Below are positions 2,793-32,000 of a DNA stretch of 32,000 bases, piece after piece (the stretch's first letter is position 1; every line of letters starts with the position of its first letter). The stretch spans positions 5,340,001-5,372,000 of the forward strand of contig NZ_CP074694.1 of assembly GCF_018398935.1 (NCBI RefSeq), read 5' to 3'. The DNA comes from Telmatocola sphagniphila (lineage in GTDB: Bacteria; Planctomycetota; Planctomycetia; Gemmatales; Gemmataceae). Both the position numbers and the translations under genes were made by a program. Under the pieces are notes generated by a model. That model made no database searches. It saw only the letters and a list, made by a program, of their open reading frames with translations, and was not told the origin of the DNA.

Positions 2793-3097
2793 GGTCAAAT
2801 TTTCTACTCAGATCATGGCTTATCCCGCCGAACTGGGCAAGAGAGACTTCCTATTCTGCCAAATTGACAGAGCCGGGGGATCGTTATCCTAAGTCTAAAT
2901 CCGCGCGCCAGATAGGTCGCGGCGGCGGGGAATTAACGAAAAGCGGAAGTTTGCCGGCTGGGGGGAGGGGGAGGACTGCTGCAGCAGTCACTTTTATTCC
3001 TCGAAATTAACGGTTGAACCCTCGGAGTACGCTATCTGTCGAGTCTATTTCACGTAATCGAAGTCTTAGGTCAATCGAGTTCGATGAGGGAGGTACG

Positions 3098-3601
3098 ATG
3101 GCCGAGCAATTCACATTCTTCTGGAAACATCGCCTCAGTCAGTGGCAGCATGCCCCGTTCGTTCTGGGAGGAATCACCTTCACCCATGCGGAACAGTACA
3201 TGATGTATGCCAAAGCCCTTCTATTCAGCGACCGGGAAGCGGCTGGTCGAATCCTCGCTGCAGAAACTCCGCGCGAGCAGCAGGAGATCGGTCGGAGAGT
3301 GCGCGGGTATGACGAATCGGTGTGGGTACTGTTCCGAGAAGGGATCGTCTTCACTGCCAATTATGCCCGCTTCAGTCAGAATGAAGATCAGCGAGAATTA
3401 CTCTTTTCCACTCGAGGGACGACTCTCGTTGAAGCCTCGCCGCACGATCGGATATGGGGAATCGGCTTGAGCGCGGACGACCCCCGGGCGCGGGATCGAT
3501 CACAGTGGCTCGGTCTGAATCTGCTGGGGGAGGTACTGATGCGGGTTCGAGAAGCGCTGCTTTGGACTTTCGAATTCAGGCGTGGTATTCACGCTTCTTA
3601 A
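3098..3601 (+). CDS. NADAR (YbiA / DUF1768) family protein
   Basis: The ATG at 3098 is preceded by GAGGGAGG (3086-3093). FFWKHRLSQW, FTHAEQYMMYAKALLFSD, GRRVRGYDESVW and LVEASPHDRIWGIGL match the conserved NADAR/YbiA motifs as I remember them. Confidence 0.8.
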   Translation: MAEQFTFFWKHRLSQWQHAPFVLGGITFTHAEQYMMYAKALLFSDREAAGRILAAETPREQQEIGRRVRGYDESVWVLFREGIVFTANYARFSQNEDQRELLFSTRGTTLVEASPHDRIWGIGLSADDPRARDRSQWLGLNLLGEVLMRVREALLWTFEFRRGIHAS

Positions 3602-3835: not shown

Positions 3836-4276
3836 GTGCCTAGCCGATTACCCTACTGCCCATTATTCTTGCCTGTTTTGCTTTCACGCCCTGCAACGTC
3901 AACATCATCGCTCATGATCCATCATCGCCCGGAAAAACAGCTCAAGAATTTGCCGAAATTGCCTTCATGAAATCCGATTATGTCGCGGCACGCGCTCTGT
4001 TAGCCCCACAAACACAGCAGGACGTATCAATAGAGAAAATTACCGCGGAAGAGGCTCGCATGCACCCAAAAACAAAACCGGCAGAGGTTTCAGCTATAGA
4101 GTTTGAGCCAATATCCGGTCAGCGTGCCATCAATATCTTTCTGAAGGGCCAACAAGGGGTACGAGTTTTTTTATTATCGACTGCTTCTTACGGGTGATAA
4201 ACAAGCGGGTTACCAAGTGAGTGGGCTATGGAGAGGTACCGGCCCCTATCCTCCCTCAGCACGTAAGCCACTATGA
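3836..4276 (+). pseudogene. Small lipoprotein-like gene broken by two apparent frameshifts (or by assembly errors)
   Basis: AAGAGGA (3823-3829) plus the GTG at 3836 make a good start, in frame 2. The convincing signal-peptide and body reading is in frame 1 from 3844 (PITLLPIILACFAFTPCNV...GKTAQEFAEIAFMKSDYVAARALL...INIFLKGQQGVRVF). That frame is blocked upstream by TAG at 3841. After the T7 run (4166-4172) the sensible reading moves to frame 2 (YYRLLLTGDKQAGYQVSGLWRGTGPYPPSARKPL, stop 4274-4276). The ORF-track entry 3967..4197 is the middle fragment. Confidence 0.45.
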
Positions 4277-16445: not shown

Positions 16446-18563
16446 TTACTTGAGGAGATCTTTCACGGCGGTGACCACTTTTTCCACTGTGAAGCCGAAG
16501 TGTTTCAACAGATCTTTCAACGGCGCGGAAGCCCCGAACGTTTTCATACCTACCACGGCACCGGTAGTGCCGACATACTTGTACCAGCACATCGGCGAAG
16601 CCATTTCCACGGCGACGCGAGCGGTCACGGCTTTGGGTAGTACGCTCTCCTTGTACGCTTCGTCTTGCTTATCGAAGACTTCGGTACAGGGCATCGAGAC
16701 TACGCGAGCGGCAATTCCATCGGCCTTCAATTTTTCATAAGCCTCTACCGCCAGACCCACTTCGGTACCGGTGGCAATCAGAATCACTTGAGGTTTGCCA
16801 TTCGGAGCATCGGCGAGAACGTAGCCGCCCTTCGCCGCACCGCTGGCCGGGGCGTACTTGCTGCGATCCAGGATCGGCATGTCCTGGCGCGAGACCACCA
16901 TCAGCGCCGGGTTGTGCGACAGTTTCATCAGCACCTTCCAGGACTCAGCGACTTCATTGGCATCACCTGGCCGGAAGACATAGAGATCGGGAATGGCCCG
17001 CAGGCTCGAAAGTTGTTCGATGGGCTGATGCGTCGGGCCATCTTCACCAACTCCGATGGAATCGTGGGTGAAGACATAGATGGGCGAAATGCCCATCAAA
17101 GAAGCTAACCGAAACGGCGGCCGTCCGTAATCGCTGAAGATCAGGAAGCCGGCACCATACGGTCGCACGCCGGAGAGTGCCATACCGTTGATGATCGAAC
17201 CCATCGCATGCTCGCGAACGCCCCAGTGGAAATTGCGGCCACCCGGAGTCCCCGGCTGAAAATTGCCGGCGCCTTCAAATGTGAGTAGCGTCTTGGTCGA
17301 AGGGGCCAGGTCGGCCGAACCACCGATCAACCAGGGCACCGACTTGGCGACGGCGTTCAACACTTTACCGGATGCTTCGCGACCGGATATTGCGGCCGGT
17401 TTCTTCACGCCGGGATTCTTCGGATCTTCGGTCGGTTCCGAACTGAAGGCAGGAATTCCTTTTTCCCAGCCTTCGGGCAATTCGTGCTTCAGCAGCAACT
17501 CGAGTTGCTTGGCCAGTTCCGGGTAGGCCTTGGTATACTCGGCGAATTTGGCGTGCCAGGCGGTGCTCAATTCCTTGCCGCGCTTGCCGATGCCGTTGGC
17601 AAAATTTTCGTAGACACCGTCCGGGATTTCGAAAGTCTTCTCCGGATCGAAGCCCATGAGTTTCTTGGCTTCGGCGATCGGCTTGGTTCCCAGCGGTTCG
17701 CCGTGGGCCGTGTGGCTGCCTTCCTTGCCGGGAACTCCCCAGGCGATCACCGAATTGGCGACTACGAAAGTCGGCTTATCGGTCGTCTTCTGGAAGGTTT
17801 CGATGGCCTTGTTCAATTGAGTTAAATCGTTGGCATCGGTCACATGCAGAACGTTCCAGCCGAGGGCTTCCAGCCGTTTGGCGGTATCTTCCGTGAACGT
17901 GAGGCTGGTCGAGCCTTCAATCGTGATGCGGTTGCTATCGTAGATCCAGCAGAGGTTGTTCAGCTTCAGGTGCCCGGCCAGACTACCGGCTTCGTTACTG
18001 ACCCCTTCCATCATGCAGCCGTCGCCGCAGAGGGCATAGATGCGGTGTGTGAAAATGTCGAAACCGGGTCGGTTGAAGTAATTCGCCAGCCATTTCTGAG
18101 CGATGGCCATGCCGACTGAGTTGGCGACGCCTTGTCCCAGTGGTCCGGTGGTCGTTTCCACCCCGGTGGTCAGATGGCTTTCGGGATGGCCGGGGGTCTT
18201 GCTACCGAGCTGCCGGAATTTTTTGATGTCATCGAGGCTGACGGCGGGAAGTCCGGCCGGGCCATGCTGCGGCAGTTGTTTTACCTGCGTCAAATGCAGG
18301 ATGGAGTAGAGCAACAAGGAAGCATGGCCGACGGAGAGAACGAAACGATCGCGGTCGGGCCAGGCGGCGTCGGCGGGATCGTAACGCAGGTAATTCTGAT
18401 AGAGGTTGTAAACAATCGGCGAGAGCGAAACCGGCGTTCCGGGATGGCCCGAATTGGCTTTTTGAACCGCGTCCATGGCCAGGCAGCGCATGGTATGGAT
18501 GCTCAGCAGATCTATTGAACTGCCGTAAGCGGGGTTGGGGGTGCTCACAATCGTGTCCTTCAT
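16446..18563 (-). CDS. tkt: Transketolase
   Basis: The 705-aa product is collinear with transketolases. It has the ThDP-binding N-terminus (AVQKANSGHPGTPVSLSP, GHASLLLYS, GPLGQGVANSVGMA, GDGCMMEGVSNEA), the Pyr domain (GREASGKVLNA, HWGVREHAM, FSDY) and the C-terminal domain. Confidence 0.95.
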   Translation of the reverse strand: MKDTIVSTPNPAYGSSIDLLSIHTMRCLAMDAVQKANSGHPGTPVSLSPIVYNLYQNYLRYDPADAAWPDRDRFVLSVGHASLLLYSILHLTQVKQLPQHGPAGLPAVSLDDIKKFRQLGSKTPGHPESHLTTGVETTTGPLGQGVANSVGMAIAQKWLANYFNRPGFDIFTHRIYALCGDGCMMEGVSNEAGSLAGHLKLNNLCWIYDSNRITIEGSTSLTFTEDTAKRLEALGWNVLHVTDANDLTQLNKAIETFQKTTDKPTFVVANSVIAWGVPGKEGSHTAHGEPLGTKPIAEAKKLMGFDPEKTFEIPDGVYENFANGIGKRGKELSTAWHAKFAEYTKAYPELAKQLELLLKHELPEGWEKGIPAFSSEPTEDPKNPGVKKPAAISGREASGKVLNAVAKSVPWLIGGSADLAPSTKTLLTFEGAGNFQPGTPGGRNFHWGVREHAMGSIINGMALSGVRPYGAGFLIFSDYGRPPFRLASLMGISPIYVFTHDSIGVGEDGPTHQPIEQLSSLRAIPDLYVFRPGDANEVAESWKVLMKLSHNPALMVVSRQDMPILDRSKYAPASGAAKGGYVLADAPNGKPQVILIATGTEVGLAVEAYEKLKADGIAARVVSMPCTEVFDKQDEAYKESVLPKAVTARVAVEMASPMCWYKYVGTTGAVVGMKTFGASAPLKDLLKHFGFTVEKVVTAVKDLLK

Positions 18564-19172
18564 TCGGTGTAACGAGTCAATCGAATACGCTGCGCATTTT
18601 ACGAATCAAAGTCCAAAAGGCGGGGAAGAAATCCAAGGAAATGGCAGGGAAAGGAATTCCGCTGGGGACGCGGGGGATTTGCCCGTCCCACCTTTGCCCC
18701 GGGCCCACGATTTTCCATGTTTGGATACGAATCCCGACTCATCATTCTGTCTAAAAGCCCCTTTTTCATAATGGTTTACCCTGGAAGGTCATCAGATCAT
18801 CATTTTTCATATAGTGGAAAACGCGATTTTGATGACCTTCGGTTATTTCTTGGGATATAAGGGCCTTTTGACCAATTTCGAGAATCGGCGGTCAGTAAGC
18901 GAATTTGCAGTCTCCTTTCGAGAAATTCGTTCTGAATTGCAAGTAAAACTGGGCCTGATGCTTTGGTCATTCGGCGCTCTTGCGGGTCTTGTCCACGAGT
19001 CTGTTTTGCACAGGTTGGTCGCTGAGGCGGCTAGGCAATCCATCGAGAGCGGGCCAGCAATTGAAATCGCGGATCAGACCATTTGTCCGCACGCTTCAGC
19101 ATAACGGATAAAGGAACGCAGGGCCATGTGGGTTGCCAGGGGGGAGTTTCGTGGAATTCTCGTGCAGTCTTT

Positions 19173-19919
19173 GTTAGCCCGACTCGGTTGGCCCGATTTT
19201 GTTAGCCCGACGCGTGAGCGAGGGCATTAAGTACATATACATTTATAACAAATCAATTAAATATTTTTGTGATAGTAAATAATACGTTCAACGAAACCGG
19301 GATATTATGAATTTATATTGCCCTCGCTGACGAGTCTAACAAAGAGAGTGCTCAAGTCGATTGGTCACGAAGCATTTTGCAAATCCCTCAATTAAAGTTG
19401 TATTAAACTAAGGTTTTGTTAGACGCGTGAGCGAGGGCATTAAGAGTCTGTTCCAAAAGCCCCTATTTCGGATGAATTTCTCGAGGATTTGTAGGGTTAG
19501 TCCCGGCTTTTGGAACAGACTCTAAGTACATATACATTTATAACAAATCAATTAAATATTTTTGTGATAGTAAATAATACGTTCAACGAAACCGGGATAT
19601 TATGAATTTATATTGCCCTCGCTGACGCGTCGGGCTAACAAAGAGAGTGCTCAAGTCGATTGGTCACGAAGCATTTTGCAAATCCCTCAATTAAAGTTGT
19701 ATTAAATTAAGGTTTTGTTAGCCCGACGCGTGAGCGAGGGCATTAAGTACATATAAATCTATAACCAATCAATTAAATAATTTTTGTAATAGTAAATAAT
19801 ACGTTCAAGGAAGCGGGATATTATGATTTCATATTGCCCTCGCTGACGCGTCGGGCTAACGAAGCGAGAAGCCGGGATATTTTGATTTTATATTGCCCTC
19901 GCCGACGCTTCGGGTTGAC
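19173..19919. repeat. Tandem array of long GC-armed palindromic units (3 full units plus partial ends; 144-nt unit + 77-nt linker = 221-nt period)
   Basis: Each unit is GTTAGCCCGACGCGTGAGCGAGGGCA + a 92-nt AT-rich core + TGCCCTCGCTGACGCGTCGGGCTAAC. Unit 1 is 19201-19340. Unit 2 is 19418-19639 and carries an 82-nt net insertion. Unit 3 is 19717-19860. The 77-nt linker is at 19341-19417 and 19640-19716. A partial left arm is at 19173-19183 and a degenerate extra right half at 19861-19919. All read directly from the sequence. Confidence 0.9.
19443..19523. mobile_element. MITE-like 81-bp insertion with perfect 19-bp terminal inverted repeats, nested in array unit 2
   Basis: AGAGTCTGTTCCAAAAGCC ... 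GGCTTTTGGAACAGACTCT interrupts the otherwise conserved cattaag|tacat junction of the unit. The flanks can be read as a TAAG direct duplication (19441-19444 and 19523-19526) around a 78-bp insert. No coding capacity. Confidence 0.6.
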
Positions 19920-19945
19920 AGCCTCGTAGTGGGCTAACATAATCG

Positions 19946-19988
19946 AAAAGCATCGCCAGATAGCCTGAGCCATCCGCCGATGCTTTTT
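19946..19988. terminator. Candidate bidirectional terminator downstream of the SDR gene
   Basis: AAAAGCATCG (19946-19955) pairs with CGATGCTTTT (19978-19987). The core stem GCATCG/CGATGC is 6 bp plus A-T extensions. The 22-nt loop weakens the call. Confidence 0.45.
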
Positions 19989-20043
19989 ATCTGGAACCGG
20001 TAGTATCAGCTACCGGGTTATCTAAGGAATATTCACAAGCGAA

Positions 20044-20766
20044 TTACCCGGCAAACTGCTTCTCGGCTGCTTTGTGATCTGCTTTCCAAGCGGCGTAAAA
20101 CTGCTTCGACATCGGATCGGGGAAAATGTCCTCGGCTCCTTTTTCGATACCCTGAATCACTTCCTGCGCGACATGGCTGGGCGGTGTCTTATCCATGGGG
20201 AAATCCTTGGCCATATCCGTATCGATGGGACCCGGGTAAATACTGAAGACTTTAATATGGCGTTTGGCCACATCCGCACGAAGTGACTGCGTGAACGACC
20301 AGGCGGCCGCCTTGGAAGCACTATAGCCGGCGATACTAGGGAATCCGACCAGAGAAACGACGCTCAGCACATTGGCGATGCCCCCGCCGCCATTTTTTTC
20401 AATCACCGGAACAAAGGCCTGCGTTACCTGAATCAGTCCGAAGTAGTTGACCTCCAGATCCTTCTTCAAATCGGCCTGGGAAATTTCCGTCGCGGTACCA
20501 AAAGTCGCCACACCGGCGTTGTTGATCAGGAGATTCACATCGGCCGCCACTTTAGCCGCGGCTTCGACTTGTTCGGGTTTCGTGACATCCAGAACCAGCG
20601 GCACGATTCGCTTGGGATCGAGAGCCACAATCGCATCCAGGTCGGAACGCTTGCGGGCCGCGGCGTAAATCTTCCGGGCACCTTGAGCCAAAAAGCCTTC
20701 CACGAAAGCTTTGCCTATACCCCGATTGGCCCCGGTAACCAGAACAGTGGATTGATTCGTTTTCAT
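20044..20766 (-). CDS. Short-chain dehydrogenase/reductase (classical SDR)
   Basis: TGANRGIGKAF (the TGxxxGxG cofactor motif), NNAG, the catalytic YSASKAA (YxxxK), and PGPIDTDM. An AGAGGA Shine-Dalgarno lies upstream of the ATG at 20766. Confidence 0.9.
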   Translation of the reverse strand: MKTNQSTVLVTGANRGIGKAFVEGFLAQGARKIYAAARKRSDLDAIVALDPKRIVPLVLDVTKPEQVEAAAKVAADVNLLINNAGVATFGTATEISQADLKKDLEVNYFGLIQVTQAFVPVIEKNGGGGIANVLSVVSLVGFPSIAGYSASKAAAWSFTQSLRADVAKRHIKVFSIYPGPIDTDMAKDFPMDKTPPSHVAQEVIQGIEKGAEDIFPDPMSKQFYAAWKADHKAAEKQFAG

Positions 20767-28910: not shown

Positions 28911-29036
28911 GCCGGGTGCCAATGACTAAGCCATTGGCATTTCAAAAAAGATCGAGAGATCCTGTCAGAATGGTTCCGGTTTTTCGTGAAATACGCAGAA
29001 AACTGAAAGCATCTTGATTTGCCAATGGCACCCGAA
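28911..29036 (+). repeat. Composite hairpin element, copy E1 (REP-B family)
   Basis: It starts 13 nt after the amidohydrolase stop. The left end is GCCGGGTGCCAATGACTAAGCCATTGGCATTT (hairpin TGCCAATG-C...GCCATTGGCA) and the right end is TTGCCAATGGCACCCGAAACC. By my own alignment it is collinear with 31761-31885 at roughly two-thirds identity. Confidence 0.7.
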
Positions 29037-29074: not shown

Positions 29075-29350
29075 ATGTTTTCAAGAGATGGGGCAATGAC
29101 AAACTTACGACTGTCTAAATCTCAACGTATAATTCTAGAAAAGATCAATTCGCATAATGGAGAGATAAACTGGTATAAATTAGGACGCGCTTGTATCGCC
29201 CTTCTTGCAAACCCGGCGGATTTTTCACTGCAACCACTATTAGACGCTGAATATATTCGAGAGCAAGCTGTTGAAAATGAGCCGCTGCCCAGGTTGCATA
29301 TTACTGACAGCGGCAGGGTGGCACTGGCAATCCCTATTCATTCACCGTAA
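29075..29350 (+). CDS. Hypothetical small protein (91 aa; 84 aa if it starts at ATG 29096)
   Basis: An intact ORF in the AT-rich patch. TATAAT at 29061-29066 lies just upstream. No family recognised and no strong Shine-Dalgarno. Confidence 0.45.
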   Translation: MFSRDGAMTNLRLSKSQRIILEKINSHNGEINWYKLGRACIALLANPADFSLQPLLDAEYIREQAVENEPLPRLHITDSGRVALAIPIHSP

Positions 29351-29354
29351 GTCA

Positions 29355-29582
29355 TTACCCAGTAGTAGTTTGGGTGGCACTGGCTATTTGCCAGTGCCCT
29401 GAAGTACGATGATACAAAAAACAGACCCCTGATTTAGCATGCTTGCAAAATTCGTAAAGAAGATATAGGCTTTGAGGTGAGGTTTCCTCACTGCCAAGAT
29501 ACCCTTCCCAGTAGTCATCGAATTGAACTACCCGCTGATCCAGACTATCACCTTCAGCTCGACTTCGCTCGAAAAATTTCAT
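29355..29582 (-). CDS. Doubtful hypothetical ORF (75 aa)
   Basis: Only ORF length supports it. Its last ~15 codons are encoded by the REP-A hairpin at 29368-29400, so it is either a REP-truncated gene or spurious. Confidence 0.25.
   Translation of the reverse strand: MKFFERSRAEGDSLDQRVVQFDDYWEGYLGSEETSPQSLYLLYEFCKHAKSGVCFLYHRTSGHWQIASATQTTTG
29368..29400 (-). repeat. REP-A hairpin, inverted orientation, left of the RAYT gene
   Basis: The minus strand reads AGGGCACTGGCAAATAGCCAGTGCCACCCAAAC. The 9-bp stem GGCACTGGC/GCCAGTGCC is perfect. It belongs to the same family as 30284-30315 and 31969-32000. Confidence 0.75.
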
Positions 29583-29617
29583 TGCAGTGATGTTCCGAAG
29601 ATGTTTAGGATGATTTG

Positions 29618-30241
29618 ATGTCTAAACGCATCGCTCATCGCAAGACTTTCGAACGTCGACACCAACCGGGCGACTTTCATGAACTGACGTTTTCGATCTA
29701 TCGACGCTTTCCAGTTCTCGAAGGTGACTATCGCCTAAAGCAGCTCGCACGCTGCATCGACGCTGCGACCGAAGAACTCCGTTTGCAACTCGTGGCATTC
29801 GTATTCATGCCGGACCACATCCACTTGCTTGTCTTTCCCTTGGAAAAAGAACCCGATTTGGTCGGATTCCAGGCACGTTTCAAGAGACGGTTTTCACGAT
29901 TTGTGAAGGAGAATCTCATCGAAACTGGTTCGCCGTTACTCGAAAAGATGATAGTGCGCGAACGGCCAGGAAAGCATTGCTTTCGCCTTTGGCAAGAGGG
30001 GCCAGGCTACGACAGAAATCTCTTTACGATGGAAGCTGTTTGCAACTCGATTGAGTATCTTCATGCCAACCCGTTACGAAAAGGCTTATGCGAGCGAGCT
30101 ACAGACTGGAAGTGGTCCTCGGCTAAATATTACTCCCAGCAGAGTTTAGAAGGGCTAGATGGAGATTTGCCAAAAATACATGGCCTTTCGAAAGACTGGC
30201 GTGGATACGAGCTCAAAGGTCGTGAGTTCTTGCTGGGTTGA
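29618..30241 (+). CDS. REP-associated tyrosine transposase (RAYT; IS200/IS605-like Y1 HUH transposase family)
   Basis: It has the HUH motif in FMPDHIHLLVFP and the catalytic-Tyr helix CNSIEYLHANPLRKGL, followed by WKWSSAKYY, which is the RAYT pattern as I know it. It is bracketed by inverted REP-A hairpins. The start is the ATG at 29618; a TTG one codon earlier is possible. Confidence 0.85.
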   Translation: MSKRIAHRKTFERRHQPGDFHELTFSIYRRFPVLEGDYRLKQLARCIDAATEELRLQLVAFVFMPDHIHLLVFPLEKEPDLVGFQARFKRRFSRFVKENLIETGSPLLEKMIVRERPGKHCFRLWQEGPGYDRNLFTMEAVCNSIEYLHANPLRKGLCERATDWKWSSAKYYSQQSLEGLDGDLPKIHGLSKDWRGYELKGREFLLG

Positions 30242-30283
30242 AAATAGGTTAGGCGAACCGGATAAAATTTGATGTTTTCAGAA

Positions 30284-30315
30284 CGGAACTGGCAGTAGCC
30301 AGCGCCTCCCAAACC
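30284..30315 (+). repeat. REP-A hairpin, forward orientation, right of the RAYT gene
   Basis: CGGAACTGGCAGTAGCCAGCGCCTCCCAAACC is a degenerate copy with two stem mismatches. It lies 43 nt after the RAYT stop. Confidence 0.7.
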
Positions 30316-31082: not shown

Positions 31083-31206
31083 GCCGGGTGCCAATGGCTA
31101 GGCCATTGGCATTTGTGTAAATAATCTCCAATTCGGAGATTCCCTCAGACATACAGGGTGATTCGTGGCCATGCCACTCGCCAATGGCGGAGCCATTGGC
31201 ACCCAG
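31083..31206 (+). repeat. Composite hairpin element, copy E2 (REP-B family)
   Basis: The left end GCCGGGTGCCAATGGCTAGGCCATTGGCATTTG is near-identical to the E1 left end. The right end is CGCCAATGGCGGAGCCATTGGCACCC, a full hairpin with a 9-bp stem. The ~60-nt interior differs from E1 and E3. Confidence 0.65.
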
Positions 31207-31893: not shown

Positions 31894-32000
31894 ACGAGCT
31901 CAAAGGTCGTGAGTTCTTACTGGGTTGAAAATAGGTTATGCGAGCATGAAAAATCGATGTTTTCAGAACGGCACTGGCAATAGCCGGTGCCACCCAAACC
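31894..32000 (+). pseudogene. Remnant of a second RAYT copy: last ~11 codons plus downstream spacer and REP-A, running to the window edge
   Basis: 31894-32000 aligns with 30207-30315, covering ACGAGCTCAAAGGTCGTGAGTTCTT(G/A)CTGGGTTGAAAATAGGTTA...GATGTTTTCAGAACGG(A/C)ACTGGCA(G/A)TAGCC...CCCAAACC. The stop TGA is at 31926-31928. Everything 5' of it is replaced by composite element E3. Confidence 0.7.

Follow-up and report, generated by a model that had tools for sequence, protein, structure and literature searches.

A tandem array of inverted hairpin arms upstream of the Telmatocola sphagniphila transketolase gene, a probable BIME-like cluster of a family linked to class 3 TnpAY1 genes

In the planctomycete Telmatocola sphagniphila (Gemmataceae), a short-chain dehydrogenase gene and a transketolase gene, both encoded on the minus strand, are separated by an intergenic region that contains a tandem array of GC-rich inverted arms. 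The array was analysed within a stretch of 32,000 nucleotides of contig NZ_CP074694.1 (assembly GCF_018398935.1, positions 5,340,001 to 5,372,000 of the forward strand), referred to as the window, whose numbering is used below (Table 1). It consists of seven arm copies of 22–26 nt in alternating orientation with a period of 221 nt, in the order arm, 92-nt core, inverted arm, and 77-nt linker. We regard it as probable that the array is a tandemly amplified cluster of non-autonomous DNA hairpins of the repetitive extragenic palindromic (REP) type, arranged like a bacterial interspersed mosaic element (BIME) and belonging to a family linked to genes for class 3 TnpAY1 proteins.

The repeats of the array are well separated from chance. 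The 26-nt arm GTTAGCCCGACGCGTGAGCGAGGGCA has four matches in the window at up to three mismatches, two on each strand, and none in 100 shuffles. Its 16-nt core has seven matches against 0.65 expected, all of them inside 19201–19919; further strings of the window arm motif are AGCCCGAMGCGTNAGCGAGGG and AGCCSGAMGCGTNAGCGASGG. The predicted fold of the array is far more stable than that of shuffled sequences (z = -13.9 as DNA), and the cores have a GC content of 21%, compared to 53% for the window. The full left and right arms are reverse complements except at one G/C position, which is located in the tetraloop of the arm. An earlier reading of this DNA, made from the sequence only, had described this difference correctly, as well as the two 77-nt linkers one base apart (76 of 77 positions identical), the partial left arm, and the degenerate extra right half that bound the array. 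The three 144-nt units of this sequence-only reading are present as repeats, but only unit 3 is intact. The right arm of unit 1 (TGCCCTCGCTGACGAGTC----TAAC) and the left arm of unit 2 (GTTAG----ACGCG...) are shortened to 22 nt by 4-nt deletions that mirror each other, so that perfect pairing across linker 1 is kept. Core 2 is interrupted by a 78-nt insertion; without this insertion and one of the TAAG copies, it equals core 1 at all 92 positions (92/92), whereas core 3 matches core 1 at 83 of 92 positions. The inserted element, with a perfect 19-bp inverted repeat, a 43-nt loop, and flanking TAAG direct repeats, looks like a separate small mobile hairpin. Tandem Repeats Finder reported just the 14-nt partial-arm repeat at the left edge.

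Table 1. Features of the array and of other parts of the window (window coordinates).
Feature	Position	Strand	Remarks
Transketolase gene	16446–18563	-	
Stretch without an assigned gene	18564–19172		610 nt between transketolase start and array
Longest open reading frame of this stretch	18814–19104		96 aa; no Pfam match
Two partial arm 5' halves, 14-nt tandem repeat (GTTAGCCCGACTCG, GTTGGCCCGATTTT)	19173–19200	+	left edge
Arm L1, full 26 nt, GTTAGCCCGACGCGTGAGCGAGGGCA	19201–19226	+	covariance model match 14.7 bits
Core 1, 92-nt AT-rich spacer	19227–19318		21% GC
Arm R1, 22 nt	19319–19340	-	4-nt deletion and one substitution
Linker 1, 77 nt	19341–19417		35% GC
Arm L2, 22 nt	19418–19439	+	mirror-image 4-nt deletion; partial covariance model match 10.4 bits
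Core 2, holding the nested insertion	19440–19613		
Nested 78-nt hairpin element in core 2	19445–19522		inverted repeat and TAAG direct repeats
Inverted repeat of the 78-nt element	19443–19461, 19505–19523		19 bp
TAAG direct repeats	19441–19444, 19523–19526		
Arm R2, full 26 nt, TGCCCTCGCTGACGCGTCGGGCTAAC	19614–19639	-	covariance model match 14.2 bits
Linker 2, 77 nt	19640–19716		76/77 vs. linker 1
Unit 3, 144 nt	19717–19860		only intact unit
Arm L3, full 26 nt	19717–19742	+	covariance model match 14.7 bits
Core 3, 92 nt	19743–19834		83/92 vs. core 1
Arm R3, full 26 nt	19835–19860	-	covariance model match 14.2 bits
Partial copy of the 3' third of the core	19861–19893		
Arm R4, degenerate, TGCCCTCGCCGACGCTTCGGGTTGAC	19894–19919	-	covariance model match 11.5 bits
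Terminator-like hairpin	19946–19987		between dehydrogenase stop and array
Dehydrogenase gene (short-chain)	20044–20766	-	
RAYT gene	29615–30241		class 2, 208 aa
Copies of the RAYT palindrome (GGGTGSCAMTGGC...GCCAGTGC)	28913–29034, 29316–29399, 30283–30303, 31087–31203, 31983–31994		copy at 29316–29399 just upstream of the RAYT gene

As all window copies lie in a single intergenic gap, a local duplication without wider significance, or an assembly artefact, has to be considered. Elsewhere in the window and at the arm loci retrieved, no match to the core, linker, or 78-nt insert was found, and a Logan contig assembled independently from short reads of this organism (L086) ends at position 19726, within the left arm of unit 3. 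Short-read assembly thus breaks at the array, and the number of upstream units is without independent confirmation here. Yet the same contig reproduces unit 3 and the extra half unit. Each unit also has distinguishing mutations of its own (the deletions, the insertion, and the diverged core 3), which collapse or expansion during assembly would not create and which therefore speak against such an artefact. Since the arm is also widespread in other genomes, we consider both the local and the artefactual explanation very improbable.

An exact scan for the arm 20-mer CCGACGCGTSAGCGAGGGCA, covering one genome per species, returned 85 genome loci, with up to eight loci per metagenome-assembled genome (MAG). 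The arm is therefore a family and not a local oddity, and the arm itself is the family unit. Approximately 79 of the 85 loci carry the whole arm with its foot, usually together with a partner arm, and six resemble bare chance matches. MAGs labelled Planctomycetaceae, Pirellulaceae, Gemmataceae, or Planctomycetota, representing at least three families, account for 74 of the full-arm loci, the other five coming from two MAGs with other, unverified labels. The four loci with arms closest to those of the window (GTTAGCCCGAC foot) are in a MAG that carries the doubtful-looking label Alcaligenaceae. No match to the 26-nt arm was obtained in metagenomes, and viral contigs gave none for either the core 20-mer or the arm 20-mer.

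The family occurs as single arms, doublets, and clusters. Among 88 seed arms, an inverted partner lies downstream of 56 (with loops of 3–28 nt in 36 and of 40–127 nt in 20), 10 have an upstream partner (two of these also a downstream one), and 24 have none. The outer five to seven bases vary by lineage (GTTAGC, GGAAAC, CCAAC, GGTAGC, and others), yet remain complementary between partner arms. Clusters, tandem arms, and tandem partial arms resembling the edges of the window array are found at loci L004, L041, L060, and L076; L004 has a tandem of arm 5' halves similar to the left edge, and at L076 a left arm with a half-loop is present in three repeats with a period of 47 nt. According to a crude gene call based on GC content at third codon positions, 48 of 62 classifiable copies are intergenic.

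Each arm (foot-AGCCCGACGCGTSAGCGAGGG-CA, approximately 21–26 nt) is predicted to fold alone into a two-tier hairpin, in which GCCC pairs with GGGC and, beyond an internal loop, CGC pairs with GCG below a GTSA tetraloop. The sequence-only reading had proposed such a fold, with the single difference between arms in the tetraloop, and had suggested a search for covariation across homologous copies. Across 416 distinct arms of all variants, columns 10 and 24 of the stem are G-C in 250 and C-G in 148, and 97% are paired; the seeds fix part of this pattern, while intermediates and partner arms are unseeded. The intermediate arms retain the pair irrespective of the base in column 13. All four bases are found at the loop position, which is thus free (C 184, G 173, A 31, and T 28), and arms with C-G in columns 10/24 occur together with type A arms on three contigs (L054, L096, and L158). 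The hairpin of the individual arm is thus supported by the compensatory swap between G-C and C-G, and by its tabulation for the closest published relatives.

These relatives come from a study of Y1 HUH proteins, in which class 3 was described as a small class found mainly in Planctomycetes, Acidobacteria, and Legionella and was noted as potentially intermediate in evolution between the transposases of IS200/IS605 and the REP-associated tyrosine transposases (RAYTs) (Quentin et al. 2018, BMC Genomics 19:475, PMC6006769). Class 3 genes were reported to be flanked by "atypical secondary structures", i.e. hairpins, with a CnGA foot; the paper devotes one paragraph to them, without experiments, and its supplementary table lists CACGAGCCGGAAGCGTGAGCGACGGGT and ACGAGCCGGAAGCGTCAGCGACGGGCATTT, one of them a GTGA variant, for Planctomyces limnophilus (ADG69454.1). 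Both sequences align without gaps to the window arm GTTAGCCCGACGCGTSAGCGAGGGCATTA, sharing the two-tier hairpin shape and the centre GCGTSAGCGA (GCGTNAGCGA, identical in the window arm), with a GTNA loop whose third position is free in both. Like the window arm, they are from Planctomycetes and form inverted doublets and clusters. The sequence-only reading had recognized the BIME-like logic of the array and called its sequence unfamiliar; the organization is confirmed and the window variant itself is indeed unfamiliar, but the family is not wholly so, because its gene-flanking variant was tabulated in 2018 (PMC6006769). A text search of 8 million papers for the exact arm strings found none.

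The association with class 3 genes extends beyond the published example. The P. limnophilus-type motif occurs at no fewer than 120 metagenome loci, and among the motif loci listed are two complete class 3 genes (with NHVH and YVVEEQ signatures) with four to eight arms on each side. Two protein searches returned 1288 and 1745 clusters of class 3 homologues, respectively, and arm hairpins or arm arrays flank all eight distinct class 3 genes examined (L112, L191, L211, L212, L213/214, L215, L216–218, and L219). Type A arms are present at all eight genes, and close arm variants flanking class 3 genes include ACGAGCCGGAAGCGTNAGCGACGG. At L219, a locus in a MAG of the Gemmataceae, a standard arm forms the downstream hairpin together with AGCCCGAAGCGTCAGCGAGGG, a type B-like arm that is identical to the arm core of the window at 20 of 21 positions. 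In at least five class 3 genes the stop codon (TGA or TAA) is the tetraloop of an arm (L212 3537–3553, L213 3510–3526, L216 2208–2238, L219 569–599, and L191 5692–5708), the last residues of the proteins (...EPEA) being coded by the 5' half of the arm. By analogy with the REPs that flank RAYT genes, the class 3 HUH enzyme is likely to be the partner of the arm family. Two class 3 proteins, P0195 and P0199 (L211 4307–4365 and L215 759–775), have in-frame arm insertions that read RAESVSAG directly after the HUH motif and resemble the REP insertions reported inside some RAYT genes.

The relatedness of the window arms to the class 3-flanking arms was also assessed with a covariance model (R1) for which 60 class 3-type arms were the sole input; both strands of the window (64 kb) were searched with it without filters. 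Its six best matches are array arms, all in register (14.7, 14.7, 14.2, 14.2, 11.5, and 10.4 bits), followed by a match of 7.6 bits. The weight of this result comes from the clustering of all six matches in one 750-nt stretch.

Several observations weigh against the assignment of the array to this family. The single matches of model R1 are marginal (E = 0.06–0.7) because the model is short. The foot of the window arm is GTTA and not the published CnGA; in type B relatives the foot is GTAA, GGAAA, CCAA, CTAA, or GTAG, compared to ACGA, CCGA, or CAGA in the gene-flanking arms. The 21%-GC cores are without counterpart in the arm family, in which long loops have an ordinary GC content. All 85 loci of the exact scan are in MAGs, no cultured isolate, and not even T. 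sphagniphila itself, having been returned. A class 3 gene was found neither in the 32-kb window nor at the 79 loci with the window-type arm, and Telmatocola is not among the best 120 of the 1288 or the best 120 of the 1745 class 3 homologues, two lists that represent less than 10% of the family. Moreover, we know of no class 3 protein for which enzymatic activity has been demonstrated. The window variant further differs from the tabulated class 3 hairpins in its lower-stem pair (C-G vs. G-C), in an upper stem of three instead of two pairs, and in its spacers of 77 and 92 nt, so that foot, stem pair, spacer size, and spacer composition all set it apart, and no description of this variant was found.

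A different kind of mobile element, a miniature inverted-repeat transposable element (MITE) moved by a DDE transposase, would be suggested by the 26–32-bp inverted ends around a non-coding core, with either the 144-nt unit or the arm-linker-arm unit as the element and the arms as its terminal inverted repeats. Small size, terminal-looking inverted repeats, and a non-coding core are also properties of the Correia and Nezha MITEs. In one Pirellulaceae MAG (L007, L017, L018, L036, L063, L078, and L076), the arm hairpin lies within a dispersed repeat of approximately 115 nt, which could likewise be read as a MITE. However, the hairpin is at the centre of this repeat, whose outer inverted ends are GAAGTTGCAC, and in several genomes arms are central rather than terminal, the arm pair forming the centre of a larger lineage-specific repeat; arms are also often internal, solitary, or present as partial tandems. 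No target-site duplication was found: a flanking direct repeat is absent in 25 of 36 hairpins, which argues against a cut-and-paste MITE, and the other 11 have repeats of 1–3 nt, consistent with chance, while the TTTG and CAAA flanks in the window belong to the palindrome and are not direct repeats. The core and linker have no match at the other arm loci, and the core is not shared between copies. Overall, a MITE origin appears quite improbable. At four loci of one 8.3-Mb MAG (L015, L037, L044, and L066) and at locus L072, the arm order is reversed, a right arm being followed after 17 nt by a left arm, and the arms are enclosed in a longer palindrome whose outer ends are GTCCGGGAATTC; this mirrors the arm-linker-arm order of the window.

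The window also encodes a RAYT 10 kb from the array (REP_Tyr_transpos of NCBIfam, 82.3 bits, cut-off 80), a class 2 protein with HIH and YLHANP motifs in a stretch of 42%–46% GC. With the alternating layout of the array, as in BIMEs, this gene would make a canonical REP/BIME cluster mobilized by the RAYT an obvious explanation. The gene and its homologues in three other genomes (L087, L088, and L089/90) are, however, flanked by a different palindrome, GGGTGSCACTGGC-N3-5-GCCAGTGC, which is present just upstream of the window gene and recurs between 28.9 and 32.0 kb, and searches of the window with the 26-nt arm and the 16-nt core found no arm copies near the gene. We therefore rejected this RAYT as the partner of the arm and consider the explanation effectively refuted; the RAYT and its palindrome are a second REP system unrelated to the array. 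The same pairing of RAYT and palindrome occurs in Lignipirellula cremea and on two metagenomic contigs.

Other candidates were tried and rejected as well. A RAYT profile search of the 85 arm loci gave two matches in all. The RAYT at L023 is bounded not by the arm but by a third palindrome family (GGGCACGTAGGAAACGTGCCCCAC copies at 3020–3200 and 3870–3990), representing a third RAYT/REP pairing in Planctomycetota, and the match at L081 is an IS200-type TnpA with its own end hairpins, which are not the arm. The translated sequences of the Rhodopirellula baltica REP families GTAG-20/21 (Di Nocera 2013) are unlike that of the arm. Integron attC sites have R''/R' boxes (RYYYAAC ... GTTRRRY) that bound a palindrome beside cassettes and an integrase gene. 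In the window, the outer GTTAGCC and GGCTAAC are off this consensus and in the opposite order relative to the stem, and no integrase was found among the Pfam-scanned open reading frames nearby.

We further considered that the array could be primarily a transcribed structured RNA or cis-regulatory element, such as a terminator, mRNA stabilizer, or insulator. As RNA, the array is predicted to fold with very high stability (z = -12.2), arms of the G variant carry a loop of the GNRA type (GUGA), and Escherichia coli REPs are known to affect mRNA stability and termination (summarized in PMC6006769). Against this, a search of 18500–20500 with Rfam at E values up to 1 returned only noise, the best matches being plant microRNA models with 20–30 bits against cut-offs of 94–250, and promoter- and terminator-like sites show no excess over shuffles. 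Arms are not confined to one orientation and are found in every type of gene context (25 tandem, 13 convergent, and 10 divergent), a separate terminator-like hairpin is already located just past the dehydrogenase stop, and the covariation of the stem would equally be expected of a hairpin in single-stranded DNA. A primary role as such an RNA or cis-regulatory element is thus unlikely. The window was also found to contain no tRNA or tmRNA genes.

Among known systems, the array resembles the enterobacterial REP/BIME elements and REPINs, which are associated with class 2 RAYTs (TnpA-REP), in its organization. Like these, it consists of short imperfect palindromes of 20–40 nt that are extragenic, clustered, and in alternating orientation with fixed head-to-head and tail-to-tail spacers, and as in BIME-2 a doublet is amplified in tandem. 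Both families are mostly extragenic and lack target duplications, and a dedicated Y1 HUH gene flanked by the repeats, as in the enterobacterial systems, is present for close variants of the window arm. In contrast, the window sequence is unrelated to the enterobacterial one and lacks the canonical GT[AG]G foot (GTTAG in the window, GTAG in a few relatives at L014, L020, L061, and L083), and the putative partner enzyme belongs to another Y1 class, the class 2 RAYT of the window serving another palindrome. BIME spacers are much shorter than those of the array and are not AT-rich. We regard the array as an atypical representative of a class of selfish repeats that is already known, and not as a new kind of element.

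For a REP-type array linked to class 3 proteins, a mechanism can be proposed by analogy with the biochemistry of IS200/IS605 TnpA and of the E. coli TnpA-REP protein (as summarized in PMC6006769). On DNA in single-stranded form, as at a replication fork, the enzyme would recognize the hairpin in its folded state together with the 5' foot, and would cut and rejoin the DNA without target-site duplication, seeding arms and doublets in intergenic DNA. One such doublet may have gained unusually long spacers, the 92-nt AT-rich core and the 77-nt linker, and slippage between arms, or their unequal exchange, may then have multiplied the resulting 221-nt composite into a tandem series. Because cores 1 and 2 are identical, units 1 and 2 appear to be recent and unit 3 older. 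Later events would include the partial-arm duplications at both edges, the insertion of the unrelated, foreign 78-nt hairpin element, and a concerted 4-nt deletion in both arms closing linker 1. The mirror-image form of these deletions is best explained by one event during pairing, which implies that the hairpin formerly existed. If the array acts on its neighbours at all, for instance through termination or by insulating the 3' end of the dehydrogenase gene from the region upstream of the transketolase gene, this would be a by-product of the process, and the conclusion of the sequence-only reading that no function is established holds up.

It is also conceivable, although we consider it unlikely, that the arm is more than selfish DNA and serves the host through a conserved partner that acts in trans, perhaps a class 3 HUH protein that has been domesticated. 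A 20-nt stretch is identical in MAGs labelled Gemmataceae, Pirellulaceae, and Planctomycetaceae in spite of differing outer sequences, which would fit such a partner. If this were true, the array, with cores of 21% GC that melt easily, would act as one functional unit, e.g. as a cruciform driven by supercoiling, as an insulator, or, upstream of the transketolase gene, as a replication-associated site.

For a REP-type family with a class 3 partner, the findings have practical and biological consequences. The array is a point at which short-read assemblies break, and it should not be linked in annotation to the nearby RAYT gene, which is not its partner. The hairpin family has a wide distribution in Planctomycetota, keeps its structure through a compensatory stem swap, and builds BIME-like arrays, and every class 3 gene inspected is embedded in arm hairpins. 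Together, these properties provide a concrete candidate pair of substrate and enzyme for biochemical tests.

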